This document shows, piece after piece, positions 1,378 to 60,569 of a stretch of DNA of 64,000 bases. The stretch spans positions 1 to 64,000 of IMG/VR virus record IMGVR_UViG_3300031992_000007; one strand, written 5' to 3'. Origin of the DNA: a virus (Duplodnaviria; Caudoviricetes). Position numbers and translations under genes: made by a program. Every line of letters begins with the position of its first letter. The first letter of the stretch is position 1. The notes under the pieces were generated by a model, which saw nothing but the letters and a program-made list of their open reading frames with translations, was not told the DNA's origin and did not search any database.

Positions 1378-1422
1378 ATACACTCCTTATTAATAGGAAG
1401 GGTTTCGACATAAAATATTCAG

Positions 1423-2268
1423 AGGTGTTAGTCCTGTATACGATAAAGCTTCTGCTAGAACAAATGGTGTACTAGATAGTGGGTTGGTTACTGCTGACGG
1501 ATGGTACTTCTTCTCTGAATGTGAACCTTCGGCACGCGGTAAAGTAAGGCTCTCCGGAGGTGTAACTCAGCGAAGTGATAAATTGTGGGGAACAAACTGC
1601 CTTTGCGTAGTTGGATACAGTAGTGACTACGGAACATTAAGTGGATACTGGTGGGCTCCTTATATCGAATCTGAGACACCTACATACAGGCTCTCCAAAA
1701 GGTGAAGCACGTGATTTCCCATCTATGGTTGTACAAGATTTGAGAACAGATGGAGATATAAGCTCCAAAATAGGTACCGCATGGAGCTTCTCCAATGTCT
1801 ATTATGCTGCCACATGGCAGATAGAAGGAAAGAAATATGACAGATGGCTCTCCCACAAGGTGCAGAAACATATGACGACTACATGACCAAAGAGTGGGTA
1901 TGTGTACATATTGGATCTATTGACAGATGGCAGAATGGTCTACAGTATCCAGCCGTTGGATCTTCAGGCACATACGGTAGAGGGCTCTCCTGAGGTGGGT
2001 CATCTAGACCAGGATTTGGAGAATGGATGATCGGAGGCAAACGAAAATCACCAGACAATGCGGATTCACCTTATCTATCTGTGTGTTCTTTTGGAGAATA
2101 CCTAAATAAACCAATCGCATGGCTCTCCTAGGTGGAAGCGACACTGGAACCAGTAATAAACTCCCACCAACAATGTTGATGTATATCCCAAATTGGACAG
2201 GTGGATTATTCCCAGATCAAGATGGACCAATGGCACACCGAGTCGGCACACTCAGATATAGGCTCTCC
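1423..2268 (+). repeat. cassette array 1: six (A)GGTG...GGCTCTCC-bounded in-frame peptide-coding cassettes
   Basis: Cassettes (GGT to CTCTCC): 1424-1555 (44 codons), 1559-1696 (46), 1701-1853 (51), 1859-1990 (44), 1994-2128 (45), 2131-2268 (46). All stop-free. Linkers gga, aaaa, cacaa, tga, ta. Confidence 0.9.
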
Positions 2269-2287
2269 TAACAAAATAAAACCTTAG

Positions 2288-2314
2288 CCTCAGGAGCCTC
2301 TAAGGCTCCTGAGG
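2288..2314 (-). terminator. intrinsic terminator of the lipoprotein gene, bordering array 1
   Basis: Stem CCTCAGGAGCC/GGCTCCTGAGG with a 5-nt loop; A-tract at about 2273-2281 on + is the U-tract on -. Confidence 0.7.
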
Positions 2315-3002: not shown

Positions 3003-3452
3003 TCAGTGAACCATCTCGTACTTGAGCCAGTCCTTGAAGATGTCTTCAGGAATGAACACAGTCCAAGGCTGAGGAGCATCTGCACCTTCTTCAGGCTGCT
3101 GCGCCACCTGGAACACTAGCATGCCAGGGTTCTTGGCGTTGCGTCCCTTGAAGGTCAGAGTGTCGTGAGCAGACACCTTGTACTCATCATCCGCCGAGAA
3201 CACCGCCGAGGTGGTGTACTTCTTGTTGTAGCGGAACTGGTAGCTATCGAACTTGTGTTCGCGGTTATACTTCTCAACCGCAAGCTTGAAGTCTTCGATG
3301 CGGAGCTTCGTGTTCTCAACGAAGGACGGAGCGACATCCGAAATGATTCCACGAAGCTGGTCGAAGAACTTGGTCTTGGCGTCGCAGCTGGCTTTGAACG
3401 AAGCGATGGCTTCCTGGACTTCAGGAAAAGCAGTGAGCTGAGTGATATCCAT
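3003..3452 (-). CDS. hypothetical protein
   Basis: ATG 3452 (MDITQL...) preceded by GAAAGGA RBS; phage-like codon bias. Confidence 0.7.
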   Translation of the reverse strand: MDITQLTAFPEVQEAIASFKASCDAKTKFFDQLRGIISDVAPSFVENTKLRIEDFKLAVEKYNREHKFDSYQFRYNKKYTTSAVFSADDEYKVSAHDTLTFKGRNAKNPGMLVFQVAQQPEEGADAPQPWTVFIPEDIFKDWLKYEMVH

Positions 3453-4725: not shown

Positions 4726-4739
4726 AAGGTAATGTATAC
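4726..4739 (-). promoter_or_regulatory. phage promoter motif (TAYATTAC)
   Basis: Minus strand GTATACATTACCTT; the same motif recurs upstream of several minus-strand genes. Confidence 0.5.
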
Positions 4740-8526: not shown

Positions 8527-10722
8527 ATGAGTACTGCTATTGAAAACCTTTTCAAGAAGATCGACGAGCACGTCGCTTCTATGGAAGGTGCGAAACTCTC
8601 CGCCGAGTACGTTGAGGCCACGCGGTCTATCGGTCAGGCGGTTGAGACTTGGGCAGACAACCTCAACCTCGTCGACAAGAAGACGGTTGATGGTGTCGAA
8701 GTGTGCTATGCTTCGGAGTCTTATGATACGTCGGCTCTCGGTGGTATGCTGGGTGCTGAGCAGATCGTGGATCTCTGCAAGAAGGCGCACGTTGCGAACG
8801 AACACCTCGGCGCTGCCGCCAAGCGCGTTGCGGCCCTTCTGGACCAGACGCTCGGTAAGAGCGAGGGTCAGGCGTTCAGGTCTTATTCTTCGAGGAAGAC
8901 GACCGACAAGGTCATGTCTTCTGTTGAGTCGCTCTACCCGGCGGATCTCGTCCGTCGTCTCGGTGGCTCGCAGTCGCTCGAAGTATTCGGTATCCAGATG
9001 GACCGTGTTGAGCCGGATCTGAAGACGATCCTCACGATCGCCCTCCTCCAGTTCCACATGAACCTCACGCCCCGGATCGTCCCGGTTCAGACCGTGACGC
9101 AGGGTAACGTGACGATCGTCCGTGAGAACCTCCAGGTCTTCGATATGTCGAAGGATGCTAAGGAGCCGACCCGTGTGATCGAGCTCTATCGTGATCCTTC
9201 CCTCGTGTCGGTTGCCGCTCAGCGCATCAAGCCGCTGATGGGTGCTGACAACAAGAACGCAGCCTTCCTCGTCGCGGATGACATCTACAAGTTCGCGAAG
9301 AAGATCGATATGTTCGAGGTCGCTCTTGACAAGACGCGTCCGGGTTGGGACAAGTACAACCATACGGACTTCGTTGAGGACAACATCTGCCTCGACGGCG
9401 TCCTTATCAAGATCGAGAATTCGGATGTCTCGGGCAAGGCATTCTACCACATGCTCCCGATTCCGACCTCTCGTGGTCACTTCACTCAGGTGTCGCAGGA
9501 TGCCAAGTCGACGATCCGTCGTCTCTGGCTCGATCGTTATCCTACGCGCATCATCGCGGCTTCTCCGGCTGATACGAAGTCGGGCAAGGCGTCGGATGCG
9601 TCGGTTATCGCTGCTCTCACGAACGGCGCTGGCCTCGCGATCGATCTCCACATCGACGCCAACGTTGATCGTCAGACCTCGACGCTCGCTTCGGGCGGCT
9701 GGATCGGCGATCTCGCCATCAAGGGTGGTACCCTCTCTGACGCTGACCGCGCGGCGCTTCTGGCGAAGTTCACGGTCACGCTCGAGGGCTTCACGCTCGA
9801 TGCGCGTTTCAATGAAGACAACAAGCGCAAGACGTCCATCCGCGCTGAAGTTGTCCGTCGCTCCATGAGCTACGAGCTCCCCACGGGCCGTAACTTCGTG
9901 GTTGACGCAGCCATCGGTCAGGACGGTGTTACGAACGCTGCCGCGTACCTCGCGCAGCTGGAGCACATCGGCCGCGACCATAACAACCTCCAGATCATCG
10001 AGTCCACCCTCAAGGCGGTTCACGATGAGAACCTCTCCATGAACAACGACAAGGAAGTCCGTGACTCCCTCGCTAACCAGTACGCTGCTGGCGACCTGGT
10101 TAACCAGTTCGTTTACATGGACACCCTGGATATGAGCGGTATGTACGGCATCCGTTCTGCTGACGCCTCGGGCGATATCAAGCAGTTCGTGAAGCAGTAC
10201 TTCAACCGTCTCACCACCGCTCTGCTCGCGAAGACCTACTTCGACAAGCAGCTCTCGGAGAATGCCACGGTGACGTTCCGCGTGATCACTTCGGGTACGC
10301 TCCTCGGCGACCTGTTCAAGATGAAACACATCCATCAGCACCTCGACGGCGACAAGGACGGCACGGGTGGTGTTGAGCATGTGATGCCTCTTGACAACGG
10401 CGTCGTGCTCGAGTTCGTTACGACCACGTTCGAGGTCATGACGAACAAGATCCTTCTGATCCCGTACCTCGCTAACGCGCAGGGTTCGGTGCTGAACTTC
10501 GGCACAGACTTCGATCAGGGCACCCTGGTCGGCGCGATCAGCTATGCTGGTGAGGACAGCGCGGCGTTCCACCGCACGTTCTCCGTTACGCGTGAGCTCC
10601 TCATCCCGACGAACGTTATGGGCGCCGTGGTCGAGGTGTCTGGGTATACGGGTATCACCATGAACGACTCCACGAGCTCGCTCACGGTGGTCGGTGTTAC
10701 CGAAACGGCTCCCAACTCCTAA
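8527..10722 (+). CDS. major capsid protein (phiKZ gp120-like)
   Basis: 731 aa; strong high-expression codon bias; S-x-E maturation sites (SME, SLE) in the N-terminal region; LEGFTLDARFNEDNKR motif; synteny with helicase; strong terminator downstream. Confidence 0.8.
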   Translation: MSTAIENLFKKIDEHVASMEGAKLSAEYVEATRSIGQAVETWADNLNLVDKKTVDGVEVCYASESYDTSALGGMLGAEQIVDLCKKAHVANEHLGAAAKRVAALLDQTLGKSEGQAFRSYSSRKTTDKVMSSVESLYPADLVRRLGGSQSLEVFGIQMDRVEPDLKTILTIALLQFHMNLTPRIVPVQTVTQGNVTIVRENLQVFDMSKDAKEPTRVIELYRDPSLVSVAAQRIKPLMGADNKNAAFLVADDIYKFAKKIDMFEVALDKTRPGWDKYNHTDFVEDNICLDGVLIKIENSDVSGKAFYHMLPIPTSRGHFTQVSQDAKSTIRRLWLDRYPTRIIAASPADTKSGKASDASVIAALTNGAGLAIDLHIDANVDRQTSTLASGGWIGDLAIKGGTLSDADRAALLAKFTVTLEGFTLDARFNEDNKRKTSIRAEVVRRSMSYELPTGRNFVVDAAIGQDGVTNAAAYLAQLEHIGRDHNNLQIIESTLKAVHDENLSMNNDKEVRDSLANQYAAGDLVNQFVYMDTLDMSGMYGIRSADASGDIKQFVKQYFNRLTTALLAKTYFDKQLSENATVTFRVITSGTLLGDLFKMKHIHQHLDGDKDGTGGVEHVMPLDNGVVLEFVTTTFEVMTNKILLIPYLANAQGSVLNFGTDFDQGTLVGAISYAGEDSAAFHRTFSVTRELLIPTNVMGAVVEVSGYTGITMNDSTSSLTVVGVTETAPNS

Positions 10723-10795
10723 AAGTTGGATGGTCGTGTAGGACTGCGCAAATAAAGGCTTATGCGACCATAGTCTAAATAAGCGATGCAAAGTT

Positions 10796-10850
10796 GGGCA
10801 GGCGGGGCGTTGGCGCGCCCTGCCTGTCCTTCTGTTTCTTTTTTCTTTTT
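10796..10850 (+). terminator. MCP intrinsic terminator (left wall of array 2)
   Basis: GC-rich hairpin GGGCAGGCGGGGCG...CGCCCTGCCTGTCC followed by a long T-rich tract. Confidence 0.8.
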
Positions 10851-10853
10851 AGG

Positions 10854-11107
10854 GGAGAGCCCTGTATAGTCTCTACTATCAGGTTTTCCTGAAGGAGGAT
10901 TTTGATTGTTATACGGCCAATAAGTATTCCACACTTGTCCATAGATAACATGCTTCCCTTCCTCATTGTTCGCCTTTGTCGAATCACCTCCCGTTGGAGA
11001 GCCTGTGATCTTCTGTGATGAGAGATGCTGTATCATGTCGTGCAACTATTCCGGATTTATCTAAGTCGTATAGATAAGCAGTTTGTGACTCTATTAGTTC
11101 TTCACCT
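10854..11107 (-). repeat. cassette array 2, inverted part: two cassettes on the minus strand
   Basis: 11106-10996 (37 codons, GEELIESQ...EDHRLS) and 10988-10854 (45 codons, GDSTKANN...DYTGLS). Both run AGGTG...GGCTCTCC on - and are stop-free. Confidence 0.9.
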
Positions 11108-11110
11108 CAT

Positions 11111-11913
11111 GGTGTTGGTGTGTATGCTGGTGCACAAATGGCTAGACTGTTCTTGGTTTATGATCTCAAACAAGATCCCGGAAGAGTGGATTTCTACGGA
11201 TACATCCCACCATCCTACCCTAACAATAGCGCACCAAGGCTCTCCATCTAGGAGGTGTAGTAGTCCACACTGCTGCAATTATTGGCGTATCAGCATGGCC
11301 AAATGTATGGAAAGACGGTCAGGTGATGCAAACTGATTATGGTGGTCTGCAGGTGAATCATACTAGCAATTGGCTCTCCGCCGGAGGTGGAACAATAAGT
11401 GCTCAAGGTTATGATTATTGGGCTCTGATAACTAATATTGGAAGAAAAGCTCCGACTAGTACTGATTTCATTTACTACAAAGAAGGCTCTAATACATGGT
11501 CTAATCCAGGATGGCTCTCCCTTATCCAAAGGTGAAAGTCACCCTTACCCAAATATCGAAGGAAATATGAAACGTAAAGTGTGGAAAATAGAAACAACAG
11601 GTGACATTAGGGATATATACATGTACGCCTTCCCATCTGATGCAATAAGGCTCTCCGAGGTGGAGGTGAGATTAGAGCATATGAGCACTGGTTTGTTGGC
11701 GGTACACACATGTTAGGTAAAATAGCTGTAATACACAACGATGGTTATTATCTAGATGGAACGTGGGCTGATGCAGTAAGGCTCTCCTAAAAAGGTGAAG
11801 TAAGACCGTACTACCATTGGTTCGTGGATGGTATACACCAATTGGGAAAAGTGATTATAGTGTACAACGAGAGTTACTACCTGGGAACATCTGCTTATGT
11901 TGTAAGGCTCTCC
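11111..11913 (+). repeat. cassette array 2, forward part: six cassettes
   Basis: 11111-11245 (45 codons), 11254-11379 (42), 11386-11520 (45), 11531-11656 (42), 11659-11787 (43), 11794-11913 (40). All in frame and stop-free; linkers 2-10 nt. Confidence 0.9.
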
Positions 11914-11936
11914 TATTGACAAAAATAAAGATAGTA

Positions 11937-11963
11937 CTCCCTGACCCTTCTTGGGTCAGGGAG
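11937..11963 (-). terminator. DNA polymerase terminator (right wall of array 2)
   Basis: CTCCCTGACCC/GGGTCAGGGAG stem; A-tract 11921-11929 on +. Confidence 0.75.
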
Positions 11964-11976
11964 CTCCAGCTTCTTT

Positions 11977-18107: not shown

Positions 18108-18121
18108 AAGGTAATATATAC
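18108..18121 (-). promoter_or_regulatory. phiKZ-type early promoter motif TATATTAC
   Basis: Minus strand GTATATATTACCTT upstream of ligA. Confidence 0.65.
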
Positions 18122-19130: not shown

Positions 19131-19196
19131 TGTCAACAGAATTGATCAACATTCTTTTACATTTCTCTACTTTTGTATGTTGAAAGGAGAACCGCT

Positions 19197-21788
19197 ATGT
19201 TAATTCGCAAAGCGGTGGTAGAGGGGTATATTCCGTTCACTCATGTTGGTAACAAACATGTTGAGTTTACGGTAGACCAACCTATCACAGCATTTATTGG
19301 TTCCAATGGTTCCGGTAAGAGTTCTCTACTTAGGGCAATAAGTGTATTCCCAGCAATTCGTACTGATTATGCCAAGAACGGGTTCATCGATTTGACTATC
19401 GAACACCAGGGTCACGTCTATGAACTTTCCTCTAGATTCGAAAATGCAACTTCTCCTAATTCCTTTAAGAAGGATGGAGTTGAGTTGAACATCGGAGGAA
19501 CTGGTGATACTCAGAAGGATCTTGTTGAGGAACACTTCGGGTTACTTCCGTATATTCACGAGATCATGTCTGGCAAAATGCAGATGTGCACGATGGTTAG
19601 GTCGGCTAGGAAACAGTTATTTAGTTCCTGTTATCCAAGCGACTTGTCTTTCGTGCTAGAGTATCACAAGAAGGTGTGCTCTAACATCCGATCTATAGGC
19701 AACCAGATCAAACTCATGCAGTCTAGAGAAGGAACTCTAGTAGCTTCTCAAATAGCACCTGAAGAAGAGGCTAGGCTAGCTGCTGAGAAAGACTGCTGTG
19801 TAGAGATCTTGGCTAGGATAGACAAAGTCAACCTTCTTCTAGAGAATGAGATCAACCAACTTCGTCAGCATCCGTACATGCACCAACAGTATCACCCTGA
19901 AGAACTAGTTGGTGTTGTCCACAGATTAAGGATGTTAAGGGAGGCTTACACTTCTGAATTCTTGGACAGAGAGTCAGGTAAGAAGTTGGGCGATGATGTC
20001 AGTCTACAGGGTCTTAGTAATCTGAGGATAAGACTGGCTTCTGAACTGGCTCACAAGGAAAAGAGCAAGGAATACATCCAGAGTAACCTTCAGGATATCA
20101 GAGACGAACTAGACAAACTCTCCAACATCAAGTATGCTTCAGCTAAAAACAAGAGAGACTCTATCATCAACGAGATGAACGTGATCTCTTCTGAATTGGA
20201 ACTGCTTGATCAAGATCCTTCGTGGAAAACCTCTGTTGTTATCCCGATGGAGAAGTTGGGAGATGTTATCGCTCTGGAGCACGACATCGTCGATCTTCTG
20301 GAACAGATCCATCCTTACTCAGGACACATCGTTGGTCAAGAAGAATTGGATAAGCTTCGTAATGAGATTTACATCTCGAAGAACTCTATCGGGACTCTAG
20401 AGAGGGAGAAGGAGGAACTCGAGAAACAGAACGAAGCTTGTAAAGCTAGACTTGGGGTATTGACCAAAAACAGCTATCCTGCTGACTGTACAAGGGTCTG
20501 TCCTTTACGAGCAACTATCGAGAGCAATACTAGAGATGTTCGGTTGAGGATGGCTGAGATCGACTCGCGTATTAGGACTATCAATGAACACGTGGCTGAT
20601 CTGCAGAAGTCCATCGATAAGAACAATGCAGTTCTGTCTGAGATAGCTCCCATACGTCCAGCACTTAAGATCTTGTACGAGTTGCTTCAAGAGAACTACC
20701 TGATGGAGATAGCTCTACAGGGAGATTCTTTCATCACTTGTCTTAACACATCTCCCATGGAGATCATCAATCGCGTTAGACGAGGAGTGGAGAACTCCAA
20801 GAAGTTCCACAGGTATAAAAACCAGAAACAGAGGTACGAAGAACTAACCAGGACTCTAAGTACACTTAAGACTATCGAGTCGACTCAGATGTCAGCAGAG
20901 ATGATCGAGAAGATCGTAGCTGACAGAGAGACTCGCATAAGCAAGGGTATCAAAGAGATCCAGGCTATCGAAGATGAGTGTGCCGAGATCAATGATAATC
21001 TTGACAAAGTGTCCAGGGTGGCGGAGATCATGGTTGATATCAACCGAATAGTGGACTCCGTCAAGACCAACATGAACATCAAGATCATTCGTACCCGTAT
21101 AGAGTTCGACCAACAGATGATCAGAGAACACGATGCTCTTCGTAGTGAGGTGAGTGCTAAACTCAGGGAAATCGAGAGAACTCTCGAAGATCAGAAACGA
21201 CTTCGTGATGTTCTTGACACTGAGATCCGTCCTACTATGAAGAGGCTTCGTAGAGATGAGGATATCTGGAAAGCTGTTGAAAGTGGGTTGAACCCAGCTA
21301 AGGGTTTACCTTGCATCTACCTTGTCAGGTTCATCAACCGTCTTCTCCAGAGAGCTAATGAATTCATCAAAGAGGTCTGGTGTCATGACTTGGAGTTGGT
21401 TTACCTTAACGAAGAAGATGATCTCGACTTCGCTATCCAGGTCATGCAGAACAAGAGCACTATCGTCAAGGATATCTGTTTGTGTTCCAACGGAGAACAG
21501 GCTATCATCAACCTGGCTATGATCTTGGCTATCGGTGTAGAGCGTGGTTATTTGAACTGGTGTTATTTGAAACTAGATGAAATAGACGCGGCTCTCACAG
21601 AAGGACATAGGTCTAAGCTAGTGTCACTGATAGACAGGTTAGTTAATGAGGGAGTTATCAAACAGCTTTTCCTAGTCAACCATTTTGCTATTCAAACTGG
21701 TATGTCCAAGTGTTCTACCATCTGTCTATGCTCTGAAGGAATAGTACTTCCAAATGAGTACAACAACGAAAATGTGACGATATATTGA
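19197..21788 (+). CDS. SbcC/Rad50-like SMC ATPase (phiKZ gp165-like)
   Basis: Walker A GSNGSGKSS, coiled coil with CxxxC hook-like CTRVCP, signature SNGEQ, Walker B LKLDEID, H-loop LVNH. Confidence 0.9.
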   Translation: MLIRKAVVEGYIPFTHVGNKHVEFTVDQPITAFIGSNGSGKSSLLRAISVFPAIRTDYAKNGFIDLTIEHQGHVYELSSRFENATSPNSFKKDGVELNIGGTGDTQKDLVEEHFGLLPYIHEIMSGKMQMCTMVRSARKQLFSSCYPSDLSFVLEYHKKVCSNIRSIGNQIKLMQSREGTLVASQIAPEEEARLAAEKDCCVEILARIDKVNLLLENEINQLRQHPYMHQQYHPEELVGVVHRLRMLREAYTSEFLDRESGKKLGDDVSLQGLSNLRIRLASELAHKEKSKEYIQSNLQDIRDELDKLSNIKYASAKNKRDSIINEMNVISSELELLDQDPSWKTSVVIPMEKLGDVIALEHDIVDLLEQIHPYSGHIVGQEELDKLRNEIYISKNSIGTLEREKEELEKQNEACKARLGVLTKNSYPADCTRVCPLRATIESNTRDVRLRMAEIDSRIRTINEHVADLQKSIDKNNAVLSEIAPIRPALKILYELLQENYLMEIALQGDSFITCLNTSPMEIINRVRRGVENSKKFHRYKNQKQRYEELTRTLSTLKTIESTQMSAEMIEKIVADRETRISKGIKEIQAIEDECAEINDNLDKVSRVAEIMVDINRIVDSVKTNMNIKIIRTRIEFDQQMIREHDALRSEVSAKLREIERTLEDQKRLRDVLDTEIRPTMKRLRRDEDIWKAVESGLNPAKGLPCIYLVRFINRLLQRANEFIKEVWCHDLELVYLNEEDDLDFAIQVMQNKSTIVKDICLCSNGEQAIINLAMILAIGVERGYLNWCYLKLDEIDAALTEGHRSKLVSLIDRLVNEGVIKQLFLVNHFAIQTGMSKCSTICLCSEGIVLPNEYNNENVTIY

Positions 21789-21857
21789 CGTTCAGCTAGA
21801 GTGGGTTCGGCCCACTCTAGCACCATCGTATGCTTTCTTTATTTAAGGAGATTTGAA

Positions 21858-22679
21858 ATGACTAACCCTCTAGACTATGCTCTCAAGGCCATAGCTCGAA
21901 AGATCCAGCCACAGATTCTCGAGTTGGCTCTGCGTCATTACAACTACACTCATAACGAACATCTCACCCTTACGTCCTTCCTGATGAAGGAGATCATCGA
22001 GAATGCTGTTCTTGTTGATGCCAACCTTACCTCAGGCAGAGTCAAGACTATCCCTCTTCGTATGGAGTGGATAGAACGTACTACTAGAGACCACGGTAGG
22101 TTCGCCGGTGATGATGGTGAGTTTACTCTCTTCAGGATCCCGCCTGAGTTCAGGGACAACATGCCTATCACGATGGTTCTGGCTCTTCAGTATCCTTTCC
22201 AAGCTTATGTGGGAAGTGGTATGGGGGACCTCTCTGTCGGAACTGGTGGTTACAACCTGAATGAACAGATCAATGAGATTCTCAACTCGTACACATTGTC
22301 CAATCCTAGAAACCACCCAGTAGCAGAATTGCTTGATGGTGACCTCATTCGTGTAACACCTTCACAGTACGCTCATCAGAACTGGTTGCTTACGTGCAGG
22401 ATAGCTTACGATGATCAGTTCACCTCTCTCGATGTTTCTTCTATTCCTGTCTTGGCCAACCTGGCAGTTATGGCTACGAAGCAGTGGTGTTATACCAACC
22501 TTCGTATCCCTGCTGACAGAGCTGTACAGGAGACAGGTATGGATCTCCCTACCATCACATCTATTCTCGATGAGTGGAGGGATATCGACCAGTTGTACCA
22601 AGAGGAATTCACTAAGTTCCGTGGTACGAGCAACATAAGCCCTGACATGTACAGACGTCTGGTGTTGTTTATGGCATAA
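21858..22679 (+). CDS. conserved phiKZ-like virion structural protein (gp164 position)
   Basis: AAGGAGA RBS; MTNPLDYAL...IQPQILE start; adjacent to SbcC as in phiKZ. Confidence 0.55.
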   Translation: MTNPLDYALKAIARKIQPQILELALRHYNYTHNEHLTLTSFLMKEIIENAVLVDANLTSGRVKTIPLRMEWIERTTRDHGRFAGDDGEFTLFRIPPEFRDNMPITMVLALQYPFQAYVGSGMGDLSVGTGGYNLNEQINEILNSYTLSNPRNHPVAELLDGDLIRVTPSQYAHQNWLLTCRIAYDDQFTSLDVSSIPVLANLAVMATKQWCYTNLRIPADRAVQETGMDLPTITSILDEWRDIDQLYQEEFTKFRGTSNISPDMYRRLVLFMA

Positions 22680-26413: not shown

Positions 26414-26425
26414 AAGTAATGTATA
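26414..26425 (-). promoter_or_regulatory. phage promoter motif (TACATTAC)
   Basis: Minus strand TATACATTACTT. Confidence 0.55.
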
Positions 26426-31662: not shown

Positions 31663-31675
31663 AAGTAATATATAC
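31663..31675 (-). promoter_or_regulatory. phiKZ-type early promoter motif TATATTAC
   Basis: Minus strand GTATATATTACTT, just downstream of the terminator hairpin at 31693-31722. Confidence 0.65.
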
Positions 31676-52678: not shown

Positions 52679-52763
52679 ACTTTTCTCCTGAAAAGGCGAA
52701 GTAAAAACTATGGTCTTTTGCGAGACTATAGCATGGTTCAAAGAACAAAAAGGAATAAATCAA

Positions 52764-55667
52764 ATGTCAACTGTTGCTCCTTATCCTCACGTAGAGATTG
52801 GGGTCAGAGACGAGTCGATTTACATCCCTATTGACACTGAGGACATGCCGCTTTCGCAGCCGCTGTACTTCATGCGTGCCAAGAAGGGCCCTGTCGGGGT
52901 TCCTGTCTGGTGCGTGTCGTACGACGTAGCCTGCAGGGTGTTCGGCGCGGACACCTTCAACAAGCGCAGTCCGTACTTCTCGGAACAGGCGAAGTTCTTG
53001 CTCCAGACGTTCCCGATGAACGGCGCATGGATTATGCGTGTTGCCGGTCCGACGGTCACGTCCGCTGATATCCAGATCGAAGTGGGTATCTCTAAGGAGA
53101 CGGTCGATGTTCCGCAGTGGCAGAGGGACGAGAACGGCGCATTCGTTCTCGAACTCGACGGATCGAAGATTCCGATCAACGATGAGGGCAAGCCGTGCGA
53201 GAAGATAGAGAATCCTGATCACAAGGCTATCTATCGTCGCGCGACTGAAACGATCGCTATCCAGGGTCGTACCTACTTCACGCGCGATGCGAATCGTTCC
53301 TACGCTGCTATCAACCGTAGGGATCGTCGTATCAAGGACGTTGAGTATTTCGCTGGTAACGGCACGCCTACTCTGGCTGTTGTCGATACTGCCACAGAGA
53401 CTGAGCCTAAGGCTGGTGTCCGTTACTTCGAGTTGGACATCACGGGTGAAGAGGGTGCTGAGACGTATGCTGCGAAGTATATCGTCGATCTGACCGCTTT
53501 CGATAGCGAGAAGACATACCTCAAGCTCACGGGCTGGTCCGGTGGTTACACGGCAGTCACGACTGTCGATGATGGTTCTGGTACGCAGGTTGGTCCTGTG
53601 CTTCCGCAGATCCCCGTTGGTAACACGCAGGGTGATCGCTTCGTCAAGATTCAGGAGAACGTCAGCCTCAAGCTCGTTGAGGTCGATGGCGGTTACGCTG
53701 TCGATGCTTCTGATTCCGAGACGGCTGCGGCGTACGGTTCGTACTTCTTCATGGGTACGCTCGACGAGACCGATCCTTACACGTACACGAACGCTGAGGT
53801 TCCGGCTGGCACGTACATCGCTGACACCGAACTCTACTACTTCTACGGCTGGCTTGATGACTACACTCTCGAGCCGCAGGCCAAGATCCCTGGTCGCAAG
53901 CTTGTGTGGCGTGCTCGTGTCGCGGATCGCTCCGCTGATACTGGTCGTGCCGTTGGCAAGTTCAAGACCTACGAGACCGAGAACTTCAAGTGGTATCCAG
54001 TCGTGGATATCGTTGCGGAGAACCCGGGTAAGTGGGGCGAGTCGTTCGGTATTCGTCTGTACTTCGACAAGGATCGCAACACGATTGCGCTCCAGCAGCA
54101 GAACGGTGCTGTCAACTACACGGTTGCTCCTATCGAGCTTCTCGATGGTGACACGCTCCCGACGGCGGTTGTGTCGTCGACACAGGACATCTGCGTTGTC
54201 GGTACGATGCGTGACGGAGTTGTTGACCTCGAGACCGACGTTGACCTCTCGCTCAACAAGCGTATCCCGAACATGTACAAGGGCCTGCAGACCCTTCCGA
54301 TCAAGATCGTTCCGGTCTCCGAGGCTTGGAATGCTATCGGTAAGGAGTTGATGGCTGCTGAAATCTCGCAGGAAGCCCGTCGTGAGATCAAGCGTCTCTA
54401 TCCGACGTTCCGCACTGTTGTGGACACTGAGGGTACCGAAACGCCTGAGACCTTCGTGGATGCTCTCTACGGCAAGGTCGTCACTGACATGGCTGATGTT
54501 GGCGAGCTCGATGGTCACATGGCTAACCCGCTCAGCTGCATGGATGCGGAAGAGATTCCGTACTTCACGACGGCTGTTGTGGACAGCGATGATGAACTCG
54601 TTACTGCCGACTCGCGTATCGATGTTGCGAAGGTCTATGTCCCGGCGCAGTCTGTCCCGATTTACCTCGGCGGCGGTAACGACGGCGATATCCTCGATAA
54701 CGACATCGAGAAGTACATCCGTGCGCAGATCAAGGCTGGCCAGGGTGGTACGCAGGAATATCTCCTCGACTATCCGCGCTGCCCGTTCAACGCAATCTAC
54801 GACTCTGGTGTGTCGGTGAAGACGAAGAAGGCGTACATCGACATGATGGCCTTCCGCGACAACGTTGTGATCAACCTGGCTACTCAGACGACCTGGCGTA
54901 CGGCGACGAATGAGGAATACTCGCTCAACGGTGAGTACCCGAACAATCGCTCGGACGACGAGTCGATCGGTGCGTCGCTTCGCTCCTATGCGTGGCTGAT
55001 GCGTGAGGACGTGAACAATGGTACGGAAGCGTGCCGTTGCAAGATCTTCCTTCATGCTGGTAAGATCAGTGGTTTCGATGGCTGGGTACCTGCGACCCTC
55101 TGGATCGCGATGAAGGATGCCGAGTATCTGAACCTCGATCACATCGATCAGGAGCCTGCTGGCCTGCCTAACTCGGCGGTCACTTGCTTCACTGAGGTGT
55201 CGTGGCGTGCTGGAACTGCGGACACGCAGAGCCGTTGCTGGAATGCTGGTCTCAACTACTGGCAGTCTTACGACAAGGATACGGCTGATGGTCAGGCGCG
55301 TCTGCACTACGCTGCGCTCCGTACTGTCTACCGCTACGAGACTTCTGTTCTCGTCGACTCGGGCGTTGTGAACGCGCTCTGCTTCTCTAAGGACATCGTC
55401 CGCAAGAGCTGGGCTAAGTTCTCTGGCGTCAAGATGTGGTCGGCTGAGCTGAATGCTCGTGTCACCAAGGACCTTACTCAGCGTCTCAGCTACATGCTGA
55501 ACGGTAAGTATACGGCCGAGGTGAATGTGTATCAGACTGATGAAGACGTCAAGCTCGGTTATACGCGCCACGTCGACATCATCCTGACTTCGCCCGCTAC
55601 CAACCGCGTCTGGCAGACCACTATCATCTGTCGTCGTGAGGGTTACGATCCCAATGCGGCTGAGTAA
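52764..55667 (+). CDS. tail sheath protein (phiKZ gp29-like) with insertion
   Basis: 967 aa; GVRDES, P-L-YF...KGP, YLGGGNDG, YDSGVS..TKK, LRTVY motifs; high-expression codons; followed by the tube gene. Confidence 0.85.
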   Translation: MSTVAPYPHVEIGVRDESIYIPIDTEDMPLSQPLYFMRAKKGPVGVPVWCVSYDVACRVFGADTFNKRSPYFSEQAKFLLQTFPMNGAWIMRVAGPTVTSADIQIEVGISKETVDVPQWQRDENGAFVLELDGSKIPINDEGKPCEKIENPDHKAIYRRATETIAIQGRTYFTRDANRSYAAINRRDRRIKDVEYFAGNGTPTLAVVDTATETEPKAGVRYFELDITGEEGAETYAAKYIVDLTAFDSEKTYLKLTGWSGGYTAVTTVDDGSGTQVGPVLPQIPVGNTQGDRFVKIQENVSLKLVEVDGGYAVDASDSETAAAYGSYFFMGTLDETDPYTYTNAEVPAGTYIADTELYYFYGWLDDYTLEPQAKIPGRKLVWRARVADRSADTGRAVGKFKTYETENFKWYPVVDIVAENPGKWGESFGIRLYFDKDRNTIALQQQNGAVNYTVAPIELLDGDTLPTAVVSSTQDICVVGTMRDGVVDLETDVDLSLNKRIPNMYKGLQTLPIKIVPVSEAWNAIGKELMAAEISQEARREIKRLYPTFRTVVDTEGTETPETFVDALYGKVVTDMADVGELDGHMANPLSCMDAEEIPYFTTAVVDSDDELVTADSRIDVAKVYVPAQSVPIYLGGGNDGDILDNDIEKYIRAQIKAGQGGTQEYLLDYPRCPFNAIYDSGVSVKTKKAYIDMMAFRDNVVINLATQTTWRTATNEEYSLNGEYPNNRSDDESIGASLRSYAWLMREDVNNGTEACRCKIFLHAGKISGFDGWVPATLWIAMKDAEYLNLDHIDQEPAGLPNSAVTCFTEVSWRAGTADTQSRCWNAGLNYWQSYDKDTADGQARLHYAALRTVYRYETSVLVDSGVVNALCFSKDIVRKSWAKFSGVKMWSAELNARVTKDLTQRLSYMLNGKYTAEVNVYQTDEDVKLGYTRHVDIILTSPATNRVWQTTIICRREGYDPNAAE

Positions 55668-55691
55668 TCCAACACGAAAGGAGATTGAAAA

Positions 55692-56636
55692 ATGGCAAGT
55701 TACGAAAACTTTCTTAAGAACAAGAAGGTTCTTACGCCGGATGGTGGCATAGTCTCTGACCTCATCACAGGTGGTCAGCTCGGTTACGGTTACAAGGCCT
55801 CTGGCTTCGACGCCGCGACCCCGCTGGCTCTTCCGCCTGCGTTCATCGTCGTCCTTCAGACTCCTACGATGTGGGATAACCTGAATGACGAGGGTGTGCT
55901 TCGTCAGACTGTGAAGTGTCTCTTCGAGACACACGCCAAAGCGGTCACTGGTATCGATGCGAACTACACGCTCGAGAATCAGGGTCAGCCTGTCGGTCAC
56001 GACTCGCAGGAACTCAAGGTTCCGACGCGCTCCACTCGTGCTCCTGTTGATCCGAACTTCACCTGGAGTGAGGTCACGGGTAACCTGGTGTGGCGTGTCA
56101 TGCATCGCTGGATCTGGGATATTTCCAACCCGGATACTGGTACGGCGTTCGAGCACGAAGGTGCCAACGTCAGTGAGGCTGCGCTCAATACGTACACGAT
56201 GTCCTCGTATGCGTTGACGTTCGCGGTTCTCCAGTACGACAAGACGATGCATCCTGATCGTATGCTGGATGGCTCGATCATCACCAACGTCTACCCGACG
56301 ACCACTGGTGAGTTCGGTATGGAGAGGACGGAGGGAACCACGAAGGTTCCTGAGCGTGCTATCGCCTTCACTGGTTACATCATTCACAACGAGCGTACGA
56401 AGGAGATCGCCCGTACCATCGCCAAGAGCATCAAGCTCCGTGGTGAGACGTACAAGGTCGCCCGTGCGAACGTAGATGACAATGTGCCGGTCAGCCAGCT
56501 GCTCGGTACAGTTGGTCTGGGTGACAATATCCAGCTCACGCGTACCGCCGAGCGTAAAGACTGGAACATCGCTGCTCCTAGCGGTGAGAAGGGTCCTACG
56601 AATCAGCTCAACTACCCGTACGCGATCAAAGGTTAG
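55692..56636 (+). CDS. tail tube protein (phiKZ gp30-like)
   Basis: 314 aa directly after the sheath; LFETHAKAVTGID, P-TTTGE motifs; strong terminator downstream. Confidence 0.8.
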   Translation: MASYENFLKNKKVLTPDGGIVSDLITGGQLGYGYKASGFDAATPLALPPAFIVVLQTPTMWDNLNDEGVLRQTVKCLFETHAKAVTGIDANYTLENQGQPVGHDSQELKVPTRSTRAPVDPNFTWSEVTGNLVWRVMHRWIWDISNPDTGTAFEHEGANVSEAALNTYTMSSYALTFAVLQYDKTMHPDRMLDGSIITNVYPTTTGEFGMERTEGTTKVPERAIAFTGYIIHNERTKEIARTIAKSIKLRGETYKVARANVDDNVPVSQLLGTVGLGDNIQLTRTAERKDWNIAAPSGEKGPTNQLNYPYAIKG

Positions 56637-56674
56637 CGTAAGAACTTCGATCTACAAAGTCAAGTTCAACATCT

Positions 56675-56720
56675 CCATCCTGGGCCCTCACGGGTCCAGG
56701 ATGGGATCTTTTTCTTTTTG
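56675..56720 (+). terminator. sheath/tube terminator (left wall of array 3)
   Basis: CCATCCTGGGCCC/GGGTCCAGGATGG stem plus T-tract. Confidence 0.8.
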
Positions 56721-56722
56721 TT

Positions 56723-57695
56723 AGGTGGGACAGGATTGGAATACCCATTTGTGAACTATGGGGATCCATCCAGCTCCATGATAAAGGTAATAAACCATAG
56801 AGGGAAATACTCTGCGGATTTTACTCAAGGACAATCGATCTTAAGTGCTCCTGGATGGCTCTCCAGGTGGGTACTTATACAGAACAGATGTAGATATATT
56901 CAACTACAGTGAAGGAGGCATTAGCGACCTAGGTAGATGTGGAATATGGGATTCTGTTACAACACATCCAATACAGAAAACCAGATGGCTCTCCAAGGTG
57001 GAGAGTATCTATACGTCAATCCACGAAACAACTTGTCTGCACGGGTAACGCAAATTAAATATGATGGCACCAGAGAATTTATTCCATATAACTCGAATAA
57101 ATCTAAAGAACAGAACGAATTGGTGATATGGCTCTCCTAGTGATGTGAGAGGTAGTACGTGGCAGTATGCAGCATCTAGAATAGGTGTTCAAGGTAGGTA
57201 CGGAGAATGGACTAATATTTGGAACTGGCCATACAGCTCTCGGTCTTATGAATCACCAGTAAGAGAGTTAAGGCTCTCCCAGGGAGGTGTAGGAATGCAT
57301 AGACCAGATGGAGACAATGGAAATCCTTGGGTATGTGGATCTACAACTGTAAACAACATTGGACAACCTCTGACGTATTACTCGAGAGTTAATCTTGGCG
57401 CAGATTCTGTGAAGAAAGTAGTAAGGCTCTCCCACTCATAGGTGCAGCAGATTTCGGATTAATGATGTTGACTGTGGGCTACCCTATGGGTTATGCAGAT
57501 CATGGAAACCAAGGAGTCGATCATCCTGACAGACCTAGATTTCAAAGGCTCTCCGCCGGAGGTGGAAATGAGATTAGACCTTTTGGATCAATTATTGACT
57601 TTAACGGTCAACTCGATTACCTAGGAAATGGGTGGGTATATTTCTTACCAAATGATCCGTTATGGACCAATAAGTCTTATTCTAAAAGGCTCTCC
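56723..57695 (+). repeat. cassette array 3: seven in-frame peptide-coding cassettes
   Basis: 56724-56864 (47 codons), 56866-56994 (43), 56997-57137 (47), 57151-57279 (43; AGGTA variant, with an in-frame AGGTG also at 57183), 57286-57432 (49), 57441-57554 (38), 57561-57695 (45). All stop-free; linkers 1-13 nt. Confidence 0.9.
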
Positions 57696-57711
57696 AAAAA
57701 TAAAAACATAG

Positions 57712-57740
57712 GGTAGGGTGGGCACGAAGCCCACCCTACC
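57712..57740 (-). terminator. portal gene terminator (right wall of array 3)
   Basis: GGTAGGGTGGGC/GCCCACCCTACC stem; A-tract 57696-57706 on +. Confidence 0.75.
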
Positions 57741-57755
57741 TCTATTTCGAAGGCC

Positions 57756-60569
57756 TTACATATCGAAGTTGAGTTCGTCTCCACCTCCACCACCTTCGCC
57801 TCCCTCACCGCCTTCTCCACCTGTTTCACCACCTTCCTCTGTACCAGAGTCAGTAGTGGTCGTTTCAGATGTAGGAGTGTAAGTAGACCCAGCACCTTCA
57901 CCGTTGTTGGTCTGATCAGCAAGTTGGTTAAGTCCCATCTTGGCGATGTTGTCCATACGACGTTTGAAGTTGTTGAGGAACATAATGAGTTTGGCAGGCT
58001 GTTCAGTAGAGATCTCCTCGATATCAGGAATGTCAGCGATCTCATGGAACCCAAGACGAGGCAAGAAGTCTCGAATGAGCTTAGCCTTAGCGACTGCTCT
58101 GACCGAAGCCATAAGAGACCTGACGTCGTCATTAGGAGCGACATCATCAGGATAGATGCACTCGAGTATCTTGTCTATAGCGTCAACCTGAGCATTGATC
58201 TCCTCGAAGTGAGCTTTGTTACCAACCATATTCGGCGGAGGAAGAAGGAGTTCGACAGTGCCTATAACTCTCTTAAGAGCTTCCTCTACATCCTCATCGT
58301 TGGAAGGATCCTGAGTTGTAACTTCCTTCTCATCGTCCTTCTCGGCTTCTTCGATACCGACCTTAGTCTTAGTCTTCTTGCCATCCTTGTCATCGTGGAT
58401 GATCTTGCGGATCTCTTCCAGCAGGCTATCATGAGCCAGGATGTAGTTCATCAAGAAGATCTTGACCTGAGGTTTGATCATGTTCTGCCAGTTACGGACA
58501 GCATTGGAGAAGAACAGGTTGGAAGTCGCAACAGACCTGGAATATTCAGCCTCACTGAGCTGATTGAGAACAGAAGGAGGAACCTTAAGGGCAATACCTA
58601 TCCAGTTGTTCAGAGTATCCATCAAGTCCTGATCAGGAGCTTGAGACTGACCATACGAAGTCTCAGTTGTGATGTTCAGGTCATCCGTGTTACCAAGGAG
58701 GCCTTTAGGCACAATAGAGAGATGTTGATTCAGGATGTTCTCTGCAGCAGTTGAAGGATCAGTCGGGAACTGAGGAACCTTCTTAGCCATCCAGGCATTG
58801 CGGACGATATTGAGAGTGCCCAGAACATTCTGGTTCTTCTCATCGACGTTCACCTCGATACGTCTATGCTTGGTGGCGTTGTCCACAGCCGCCATGATCT
58901 TGGCTATGGTCAACGTAACACGCAGACCAAGCAGATAGGCTATGTCCTCAAGGAAGGTCTTGCCTGTACCATCCTCACGATGAGCGAACCTGATGTAGGT
59001 CATCATCGGTGCAGGGACGAATACAAGTTTGATCTTGTTCTTGGCAAGGAGATTGAAGAACAGACACTTACCCACAGCTTCGTGGACATGAATGTCCAGT
59101 CCAGTAAGACCCTGCTTCTTAAGCTTAGACTCAAGAAGGTGGTTGACAGCGACAGCGAAGACTTGCGTCATCTGCTGAAGCACATCACTAGTCTGTACAC
59201 CAGACTCCTTGTAGGTCTGCATGGTTATGCCGCCATAGACAGCCTTAGCTGCATTGGTAGCAAGCTTGTTGGTAGCATCGGTTGTAACACCACCATTGAA
59301 GACATAGTTACCACGAGCAGGTTGACCATTCTCATCCAGAGCAATGTAGTAGCCAATGTGGTTCTTGTTATCCCTAGGAGCACAGACAGGAATGACTGCG
59401 TCACAGGGAAACTCAATCACGATAGGCATATCGTTCTCGGCTGTCTTGATAACATCCGAAACAGTGTACACTGGGAGTTGGGGTCTTCCAGTTGCATCAT
59501 CAGTGGGATTGAACCCACGAATCAGAGACATGGCTTCCCTGGTAAGTTCATCCAATTTAGCACTGGCTTCTTTCCTACCTTTAGTAAGCTGACGGATGTC
59601 CCTGGTGATGGTTATTGCATCGTGGTTGTCACTCGTTCTGAGAAGTTTGAAGGCTCCTTTAGCAAGGGCTTTAGCAAGCTGATCAGCTGAGGAGTAAAGT
59701 TTCTTTTCGGATTCCGACTTACCCTCAAGGGAGATGTGTTCTTTACCAGCGTTGCTCTTCTCGATGAGAGCAGCAGCCAGTGTCTCCATAGAGGCTTCCA
59801 GTTCCGAGAAGTTTTCAGGGATATCCATCTCATCAAGAGAGGGGACATTACTCTCTGTAGCAACTCCATCCGGAAGTTTCTTCTTAACAGTCGACCAGCT
59901 AGAGAAATCAACAAGACTCTCTGTAGATGTTACAGCATTGTGCTCATTCTCGAATTCCCTCTTGGCATCCTGGAACTTCTTAAGGGTTTCAGGATCCCAC
60001 TTATCAGCAACCACATTGAGAATATCGAGTTGGTTCTTGGGGAGAACAAGGACAGGTTTAGCACCCTCTTCGAATCCAGCACAACCTAGCCACTCGGCCA
60101 ACCTAGGGCCAAGGGCATACTCCTTGTTGAAATAGTCAGTGAGCTTGGAAGAAATACTTGCATTGACAGACTCGTCCAAACCAGGATGATTAACCTGGAT
60201 GGCAATACTGTCAGTCTGCATCTCCAGAGGTGAGATAATGGAGGAGACGATAATCATCCTTGCATGATCGATCTCAGGAGCCATGATCTTCAAATTCTTC
60301 AGCTCGTCGATCGTCTTCCTAGTATTGGCGGAGATATCCGTCAACGTAGTCATGATCGCATCTTCAGTAAGCTGATCACGCTTCTTCTGAGCACGGTTCT
60401 GAAGAATACCGTCCAGGTGTCTAAGTTCTTGGGTTGAGAACATACCGAAGTGGGCAGTTTCCTCTGTTCCACGTCGACTGTCCGAGATCTCAGCGCTATT
60501 GTTGGTGCCGAAGAATCTTGCGACTCTCGACATCATTCTGTATGCACCTTCAGTAATACTTGACGCCAT
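57756..60569 (-). CDS. portal protein (phiKZ gp129-like)
   Basis: 937 aa; ARMIIVSSIISP, VIPVCAP...HIGYYIALDENGQP, LVFVPAPMMTYIRF...DGTGK, EYSRSVATSNLFF motifs; divergent from the gp128-like gene. Confidence 0.75.
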   Translation of the reverse strand: MASSITEGAYRMMSRVARFFGTNNSAEISDSRRGTEETAHFGMFSTQELRHLDGILQNRAQKKRDQLTEDAIMTTLTDISANTRKTIDELKNLKIMAPEIDHARMIIVSSIISPLEMQTDSIAIQVNHPGLDESVNASISSKLTDYFNKEYALGPRLAEWLGCAGFEEGAKPVLVLPKNQLDILNVVADKWDPETLKKFQDAKREFENEHNAVTSTESLVDFSSWSTVKKKLPDGVATESNVPSLDEMDIPENFSELEASMETLAAALIEKSNAGKEHISLEGKSESEKKLYSSADQLAKALAKGAFKLLRTSDNHDAITITRDIRQLTKGRKEASAKLDELTREAMSLIRGFNPTDDATGRPQLPVYTVSDVIKTAENDMPIVIEFPCDAVIPVCAPRDNKNHIGYYIALDENGQPARGNYVFNGGVTTDATNKLATNAAKAVYGGITMQTYKESGVQTSDVLQQMTQVFAVAVNHLLESKLKKQGLTGLDIHVHEAVGKCLFFNLLAKNKIKLVFVPAPMMTYIRFAHREDGTGKTFLEDIAYLLGLRVTLTIAKIMAAVDNATKHRRIEVNVDEKNQNVLGTLNIVRNAWMAKKVPQFPTDPSTAAENILNQHLSIVPKGLLGNTDDLNITTETSYGQSQAPDQDLMDTLNNWIGIALKVPPSVLNQLSEAEYSRSVATSNLFFSNAVRNWQNMIKPQVKIFLMNYILAHDSLLEEIRKIIHDDKDGKKTKTKVGIEEAEKDDEKEVTTQDPSNDEDVEEALKRVIGTVELLLPPPNMVGNKAHFEEINAQVDAIDKILECIYPDDVAPNDDVRSLMASVRAVAKAKLIRDFLPRLGFHEIADIPDIEEISTEQPAKLIMFLNNFKRRMDNIAKMGLNQLADQTNNGEGAGSTYTPTSETTTTDSGTEEGGETGGEGGEGGEGGGGGDELNFDM

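Follow-up and report, generated by a model that had tools for sequence, protein, structure and literature searches.

The window analysed here comprises the first 64 kb (64,000 nucleotides, nt) of the genome of a phiKZ-like jumbo phage (IMG/VR record IMGVR_UViG_3300031992_000007), a single contig of 265,480 bp with a completeness estimate of 100%. A simple codon-bias caller gave 215 genes in the genome, 165 of them on the minus strand, and missed some genes; the coding share is ~89%. The recognised genes encode the major capsid protein (MCP; PF25620), a phiKZ gp29-like sheath, the tail tube protein (PF23806), a family-B DNA polymerase and an internal head protein (PF12699), and split RNA-polymerase beta-like subunits are also encoded. 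The subject of this study is a set of arrays of short, start-less coding cassettes located between genes, in particular array 3, which separates the tail tube gene from a convergent virion structural gene. The tube gene (55692..56636, plus strand, 314 amino acids (aa)) is preceded by the sheath gene (52710-55667) and matches PF23806 Phage_TTP_14 (E 1.9e-27) and PHROG 3185. The convergent gene (57756..60536, minus strand, 926 aa), whose synteny with the tube gene is kept in relatives, matches PHROG 3004 'virion structural protein' (E 9.6e-88) and gave no match in a Pfam search. An earlier note on this DNA had named the flanking genes from the sequence alone; the Pfam and PHROG matches confirm its tail tube, MCP and DNA polymerase, but its 'portal' goes beyond PHROG 3004, which is annotated as 'virion structural protein' only.

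The 1119 non-genic bases between the tube gene and the 926-aa gene hold array 3 (56724..57695, plus strand). It consists of seven start-less cassettes of 40-51 codons with a GGTG-type anchor near the start and [W/R]LS, encoded by xGGCTCTCC, at the end; the frame breaks at the junctions between units. The left wall of the array is the predicted intrinsic terminator of the tube gene (56674..56720, plus strand), a 14-bp hairpin (56674-56705) followed by ATCTTTTTCTTTTTG, and the first anchor, GGTGGG at 56724, lies 4 nt past the end of this U-tract (56720). At the other side, the seventh and last GGCTCTCC ends at 57695 and the terminator of the 926-aa virion gene (57696..57740, minus strand) begins. 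Specifically, the 16 nt directly after the last repeat are the U-tract AAAAATAAAAACATAG, which reads CTATGTTTTTATTTTT on the minus strand, of a 12-bp hairpin at 57712-57740 with a folding free energy (dG) of -31.2 kcal/mol (70-nt flank).

Array 2 lies between the terminators of the MCP and DNA polymerase genes. The MCP terminator (10796..10850, plus strand) is a 15-bp hairpin (10796-10829; dG -35.2) with a 21-nt U-tract ending 3 nt short of an inverted sub-array of two cassettes (10854..11108, minus strand), the 3' (RLS) end of which faces the terminator. The main sub-array of six cassettes (11111..11913, plus strand) is joined to it head to head in the arrangement CACCTC-AT-GGTG, with 2 nt separating the anchors. 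The DNA polymerase terminator (11914..11964, minus strand; hairpin 11936-11964, dG -30.9) has a U-tract that reaches the last repeat. Array 1 (1421..2268, plus strand, six cassettes) is antisense to both neighbours, with the terminator of the upstream gene on one side and a promoter-like motif of the downstream gene on the other. The terminator of gene 2338-2868 (2269..2314, minus strand; hairpin 2286-2314, dG -26.5) has a U-tract, AAGGTTTTATTTTGTTA, that ends at the last repeat of the array, 17 nt from the hairpin, and the ATTTTATG motif (1409..1416, minus strand) precedes the internal-head-protein gene (70-1383) by 26 nt and is 5 nt away from the first anchor. The hairpins at the three arrays are GC-rich, have 12-15 bp, are followed by a U-tract and start 12-73 nt past the stop codons. 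These coordinates agree with the earlier note, which had placed arrays 2 and 3 between two opposing terminators and array 1 against one, and had described the gaps of arrays 2 and 3 as filled nearly edge to edge, a few nt from the U-tracts. Within the window the repeat is confined to the arrays: 2.0 copies of GGCTCTCC would be expected, 21 are present (0/100 shuffles reach 21), and every one of them is inside arrays 1-3. The MCP, sheath and tube genes (window 8800-10800 and 52800-56400) have a G+C content of 54-62%, compared with 47.6% for the genome, and high codon-bias scores, which is the compositional signature of the late genes predicted to be most highly expressed.

In the whole genome there are 53 copies of GGCTCTCC, in nine array or cassette loci and one expressed gene. 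Eight arrays (A1 to A8; the inverted pair of cassettes counts with A2), a locus with a single cassette (S2) and the 3' end of the gene for a 1412-aa protein account for all of them. The silent units measure 119-157 nt, and the frame in which xGGCTCTCC is read as [R/W/G]-L-S stays open for ~40-50 residues (about 45 codons). The unit peptides mostly start with GG or GE, from the GGTG or GGAGGTG-type anchor, and have no start codon; junctions between units are 1-13 nt long, frequently with a frame break or a stop. The cassettes are under coding constraint: across the 52 silent units, the RLS frame contains 2 stops in 2028 codons and the other five frames 73-173.

The expressed gene (genome 224574-228812, minus strand, outside the window) encodes a virion-type protein and carries one GGCTCTCC in its 3' end. 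GGCTCcgcTCC...GGAGGTG lies upstream and GGCTCTCC downstream of its last 45 codons, and the C-terminus of the protein reads ...AAQYWWLRSAGG, then 45 residues, then RLSPLITIG. The last 160 nt before GGCTCTCC are 100% identical to the final cassette of A7 (243014-243857). This identity ends exactly at the anchors, and donor and expressed tip show no adenine-specific changes. The other donors are ~51% identical, i.e. unrelated. If the expressed copy is set aside, a single pair of cassettes from different arrays are clear paralogues: unit 2 of array 1 (window 1689) and a unit at genome 246528, in arrays 245 kb apart, with 69% DNA identity against a median of 51%. No polarity of cassette similarity towards the terminator end was found, and the idea that young cassettes cluster at that end was dropped, as the cassette similarity gave it no support.

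Nine homologues of the expressed protein were found among 1.8 billion representatives. In seven homologues (P0027-P0033, from ENA metagenomes only), AAQYWWLRSAGG and [R/W]LSPLITIG are kept and the ~45 residues between are hypervariable. Searches of Pfam, PHROGs and the ESM Atlas with the expressed protein gave no match, and AlphaFold modelled its last 230 residues with a predicted local distance difference test score (pLDDT) of 39 from a 12-row alignment. The protein probably plays a role in host binding. Just before its variable segment it carries a YWWLRS motif, which is typical of the lectin-fold targets of diversity-generating retroelements (DGRs) and may or may not point to such a target here. 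An unrelated viral contig of 63% G+C (IMGVR_UViG_3300029728_000110, positions 1797-1822) carries ...YWWLRSAGG and a short C-terminal tail, and the anchor motif is thus shared with other phage proteins, which may be lectin-fold DGR targets. In the genome, at its estimated completeness of 100%, the reverse transcriptase model PF00078 found no match, with matches in control genomes, and the models for serine recombinase (PF00239), tyrosine recombinase (PF00589) and RecA found none either. Because of the coding constraint, the exact 160-nt copy, the conserved flanks in the homologues and the absence of reverse transcriptase, recombinase and RecA matches, the arrays are best read as putative stores of silent donor cassettes serving a single expressed tip, and the exact copy may reflect transfer from a donor into that tip.

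To locate the arrays relative to transcription signals, hairpin-plus-U-tract sites were scanned on both strands. The earlier note had suggested checking whether further arrays also lie between convergent terminators. Three of the nine loci do: array 2, array 3 and the array at 234726-235269 (A6) have a terminator on both sides. Five are tandem loci between two minus-strand genes, bounded by a terminator and a promoter (array 1, the arrays ending at 97791, 243857 and 247384, and S2, ending at 263112), and one is divergent, bounded by two promoters without a terminator (A5, ~136015-136719). The wording 'between convergent terminators' is therefore too narrow, as six loci have one terminator or none, with a promoter on the other side. 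As far as the predicted signals tell, every locus occupies a spacer between transcription units (9/9), of the terminator-terminator type in three cases, terminator-promoter in five and promoter-promoter in one.

The fit is tight, each array coming within ~0-20 nt of a flanking signal. Read along the plus strand, each of the five tandem loci passes from its last repeat into an A-tract and then a strong hairpin, the putative terminator of the upstream minus-strand gene (dG -25 to -33 kcal/mol, 70-nt flank). At the other end of these loci the first anchor is 45-80 nt from the start codon of the next gene, with a ribosome-binding site (RBS) and a promoter-like motif between. In all five, the array is thus past the terminator and ahead of the promoter motif, and never in a 3' or 5' untranslated stretch. 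Taking all loci together, the 3' edge of 9 of 10 cassette blocks is separated by 0-12 nt from the U-tract that belongs to an opposing hairpin (dG -25 to -35 kcal/mol). The 5' edges abut plus-strand U-tracts at A3 and A6 and the upstream edge of promoter-like motifs at A1, A4, A5, A7 and S2; at the 5' edge of A8 no promoter motif could be named. The last repeat of A5 is followed by an AT-rich stretch, an RBS and the start of a plus-strand gene, which places this array between two outward-facing putative promoters.

Orientation is also biased. Fifty of the 52 silent cassettes are on the plus strand, inverted relative to the expressed gene, and 9 of 10 blocks point their 3' (RLS) end at the U-tract of a terminator that faces them. 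Since most genes are on the minus strand, these two biases are confounded. The inverted block of array 2 favours a terminator-facing rule, while the divergent locus and an inverted cassette in a related contig (L096, described below) break it. With the gaps fixed and orientations random, our own arithmetic gives the rule a chance of ~1/128, which is suggestive only. Two loci have additional hairpins. Between the 97-kb array and the next gene (genome 97792-98239) there are two minus-strand hairpins in series (~97813-97840 and ~97942-97967) and 270 nt without a convincing open reading frame, and the 3' end of the 243-kb array has two tandem hairpins too. Other long gaps in the genome were considered as decayed arrays, which was ruled out; one of them holds a gene missed by the caller. 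The sole tRNA gene found by ARAGORN in the 265-kb genome is a tRNA-Asn (gtt) at 143460-143535.

The convergent loci differ from array-free gaps in the number of hairpins. All 16 array-free convergent gaps with a spacer (median length 57 nt, interquartile range 51-62) have a single hairpin flanked by an A-tract and, on its opposite side, a T-tract. In the three convergent gaps that contain an array there are always two hairpins, which differ from each other and occupy the two edges (Fisher P = 1/969, own arithmetic). Because an array inserted beside one bidirectional hairpin would be transcribed by one of the converging genes, the presence of a putative terminator on each side suggests selection against transcribing the arrays. 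TTAT is present in 54 of 100 tails in this genome, compared with 34% in shuffles, and phiKZ terminators mapped by ONT-cappable-seq consist of a hairpin and then TTAT (PMC10914365). The array-flanking hairpins share no sequence. They are not significantly stronger than the others (Mann-Whitney P 0.15), and an expectation that they would be clearly one-directional was not borne out.

Putative promoters were derived by k-mer enrichment upstream of the genes of this genome. They match the published picture of phiKZ-like phages, whose early promoters share an AT-rich motif that is accessible to bioinformatic detection and whose late promoters have little definition apart from TATG (PMC7598289). Here, TA[TC]A[TC]ATTAC has 17 copies, of which 16 are intergenic, all 16 on the minus strand, often with GTTAATC ahead. 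A long version, (GTGTTAATCaAattt)-N-TATA[C/T]ATTACyt.gGTG, is present on the minus strand at window 4729-4738, 18111-18120, 26416-26425 and 31665-31674 and at ~24 further genome sites; all intergenic copies are again on the minus strand, and the motif is probably an early promoter class for the virion RNA polymerase. The ATTTTATG motif resembles the phiKZ late promoter TATG, and of its 15 copies in the genome, 8 lie between genes at a distance of 20-52 nt ahead of start codons. The third motif, CCATCGTATGC, has three copies 20-50 nt before start codons, one of them ahead of the same orthologous gene in a relative. With a T-rich stretch and an RBS it is found at window 21824-21834 (plus), L096 3153-3163 (minus) and genome 136008 (minus). 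The sites at window 21824 and in L096 precede orthologous genes of phages ~50% identical in protein, and the motif also stands ahead of the gene for a 1444-aa RNA-polymerase subunit; it may be a third promoter class containing TATG. The distance from the first anchor to such signals is 5 nt at array 1 (to ATTTTATG), 5 nt at the 243-kb array (to the nearest promoter-like element), 3 nt at the 97-kb array (to the upstream element of an early-type promoter) and ~6 nt at the divergent locus (to CCATCGTATGC). A scan of the genome found no recurrent promoter motif inside any array, and array 2 has no space for an internal promoter between its sub-arrays because their anchors are 2 nt apart.

The same layout recurs in a relative at another site. 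A pattern scan of metagenome contigs gave at least 119 loci, nearly all of them tandem-repeat proteins, and L096 (5565 nt) was the one real relative among the matches listed. Window genes 19173-21788 and 21801-22679 encode the counterparts of its flanking proteins, at 47-52% identity. L096 contains one inverted and six direct cassettes without in-frame stops, ending in GLS encoded by GGGCTCTCC, and the palindrome CTCCACGTGGAG forms the head-to-head joint of the inverted and direct blocks. Only 3 nt separate the end of the main block from the U-tract of a hairpin that opposes it and is located after a minus-strand gene (dG -26.7, z -3.9), and the other edge is 2 nt from CCATCGTATGC, which is followed by an RBS and a start codon. 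The corresponding place in the present genome is empty. Since this site is empty here and the layout is the same, the position of arrays shifts between relatives and the logic of their placement recurs. At the joints between inverted and direct anchors there is a near-palindrome, CACCTC-AT-GGTG, in the window (11103-11114) and a perfect one, CTCCACGTGGAG, in L096 (~3285-3300); these joints look like the scar of a fold-back or inversion event.

L015, which at 52% tube identity is the closest relative in IMG/VR, has one bidirectional hairpin in the 84 nt between the tube gene and its convergent partner. In IMG/VR relatives with a tube identity of 36-52%, neither arrays near the tube gene nor a homologue of the expressed gene are present, and in relatives unrelated genes have also been inserted at the tube junction. 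Relatives with a tube protein 75-85% identical, and hence closer, were found in ENA only. A three-repeat pattern scan of IMG/VR returned tandem-repeat proteins only, an MCP search of IMG/VR and GenBank phages and a search of GTDB genomes with a tail-tube profile gave no match, and IMG/VR scans for the tail and the upstream anchor of the expressed gene gave nothing useful.

On this evidence we consider it rather probable that the arrays serve as silent libraries of donors for the C-terminal segment of the 1412-aa protein, kept only in DNA that the phage RNA polymerases should not cross. Each array would be maintained in a spacer that runs from the terminator of one unit to the terminator or promoter of the next, or between two divergent promoters; where genes converge, one terminator per side would halt incoming transcription ahead of the cassettes, and the cassettes would be used through copying at the DNA level into the expressed site. 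The 'silent storage sites' proposed in the earlier note are supported to this extent, since the nine loci and L096 are outside predicted transcription units, recurrent promoter motifs are lacking inside the arrays, the head-to-head joint is 2 nt long and the convergent arrays have two terminators. Shielding might have been selected because the GGAGGTG anchors, which resemble Shine-Dalgarno sequences, could otherwise give rise to spurious peptides, because transcripts of the arrays could act as antisense RNA on the expressed tip, or because late messages, which are very abundant, would carry wasteful tails of 1 kb. Several points weigh against this interpretation. That the hairpins terminate transcription and that the arrays are silent are predictions from sequence, and we infer from the same source that the arrays stay untranscribed during infection and that shielding is selected. 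Late promoters of the phiKZ type need only TATG and context (PMC7598289), and initiation inside the arrays is therefore possible, with bare TATG frequent on their sense strand (48 in 6.9 kb). Terminator enrichment at the arrays has P about 0.002 against all 214 gaps; it is modest against gaps of >=40 nt (P about 0.09, or an estimated ~0.01 with A4 and A8 counted by eye). Economy of transcription, in particular of the very abundant late messages, might also account for the doubled terminators without any need of the cassettes. The sample is small, nine loci and one relative, and the gene calls come from our own simple and incomplete caller.

Passive placement, which we regard as unlikely though worth weighing, would explain the positions by the compactness of the genome: sites between units are where extra DNA is harmless, and the signals serve the neighbours with no selected silence. 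In agreement with this, the genome is ~89% coding, ~46% of gaps of >=40 nt already carry a terminator, the gaps minus their arrays are of ordinary length (74-194 nt at most loci) and the tube junction of relatives also takes unrelated genes. However, insertion beside a single bidirectional hairpin leaves one converging gene reading through, and the second hairpin is present in 3/3 array-bearing gaps and 0/16 elsewhere. In addition, at all six tandem loci (five here and L096) the array is between terminator and promoter motif and never in an untranslated stretch. Passive placement accounts for the tight fit and not for the doubled terminators. Targeted seeding makes the hairpin a cis element, with cassettes or arrays inserted or extended at the U-tract side, and is in our view quite unlikely. 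Group IIC introns and some insertion sequences target terminators, and in 10 of 12 blocks (counting L096) the 3' repeat is 0-12 nt from an A-tract and hairpin, including S2 and the inverted sub-array of A2; it is also a weak point in favour that the array-proximal hairpin of A3 is the extra one if the tube-side hairpin is that shared with L015. Against seeding, it is promoters and not terminators that mark the ends of A5 and of the inverted L096 cassette, the 5' ends are equally flush against unrelated features, the hairpins have no common sequence, the genome has no match for reverse transcriptase, tyrosine or serine recombinase or RecA, and cassette similarity has no polarity towards the terminator end. 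The 'targeted insertion next to terminators' of the earlier note thus fits the flush 3' ends but is not required, as the 5' ends are as tight at promoters, A5 has no terminator and the hairpins are unrelated.

A more specific form of seeding combines it with the donor-library function. Arrays may be seeded and lengthened on the U-tract side of terminators, for instance through template switching coupled to replication where a fork stalls, with the hairpin as a working part; the library would be built and read by polymerase template switching at the 8-nt anchors without a dedicated recombinase, and the palindromic joints CTCCAC|GTGGAG (L096) and CACCTC-AT-GGTG (array 2) would be fold-back scars. 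We hold this elaboration to be improbable. It is very improbable that the arrays act as transcribed RNA, either as guide or antisense RNA or as a recoded or spliced message that would fuse the cassettes into a single protein. In favour of such a role, the junctions differ in length in a way that would preserve the frame if they were skipped, the GGAGGTG anchors resemble ribosome-binding sites and bare TATG is common in the arrays. However, no recurrent promoter motif is in or heads any array, two arrays begin directly after a co-directional terminator, head-to-head sub-arrays are 2 nt apart, and an Rfam search of the window gave no match. The cassettes are also constrained as protein, one being copied letter for letter into a real gene, and their unrelated sequences argue against one repeat protein. 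A CRISPR-like or RNA-guide array was rejected, as the repeat is an 8-mer read as codons (RLS), the 'spacers' are protein-constrained, and there is neither a leader motif nor, in the window, an Rfam match.

The reading as silent donor libraries can be compared with known systems. Gene conversion from silent cassettes generates antigenic variation in bacteria at Borrelia vlsE/vls, Neisseria pilE/pilS and the Treponema tprK donor sites. The present arrangement is similar in having one expressed gene and many promoterless, start-less donors that match the variable segment only, short conserved bounds common to donors and expressed site, and one donor equal to the current expressed segment; as in Borrelia vls, nearly all donors (50/52) are inverted relative to the expressed gene. 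It differs in being viral, in having nine scattered loci and not one or few, in its anchors of only ~8 nt and in the lack of a RecA-type recombinase match. To our knowledge, donors set precisely in spacers bounded by terminators or promoters are not known from the bacterial systems. DGRs such as that of Bordetella phage BPP-1 Mtd and those of gut phages vary the C-terminal ~45 residues of a receptor-type protein from a non-expressed template, as the present system would, whereas here there is no reverse transcriptase match, there are 52 unrelated templates and not one, and the donor copy is identical. Mu Gin, P1 Cin, p15B Min and the R64 shufflon likewise keep alternative C-terminal tips of one phage or pilus protein as silent segments. 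They rely on a serine or tyrosine recombinase, with inverted crossover sites adjoining the gene that is expressed, in contrast to the present genome, in which no such recombinase matched, the repeats are direct within an array and the stores are up to ~220 kb from the gene. The signals themselves are like those of phiKZ (PMC10914365, PMC7598289), with GC-rich hairpins and U-tracts often with TTAT, a conserved AT-rich 10-mer and a TATG-type motif; here they are known from sequence alone, the motifs coming from enrichment upstream of the genes of this genome.

A literature search of partial coverage found no description of such a cassette library in a phage or virus. If the arrays are silent and shielded, this would strengthen the case that the lineage changes a probable host-recognition tip from a stored library. 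Copying from a stored library is a strategy of bacterial and parasite antigenic variation. The placement rule predicts that libraries in other large phages would appear as long 'empty' spacers running from a terminator to the next signal. If the interpretation is true, a compact virus spends extra terminators to keep ~7 kb of its DNA untranscribed.

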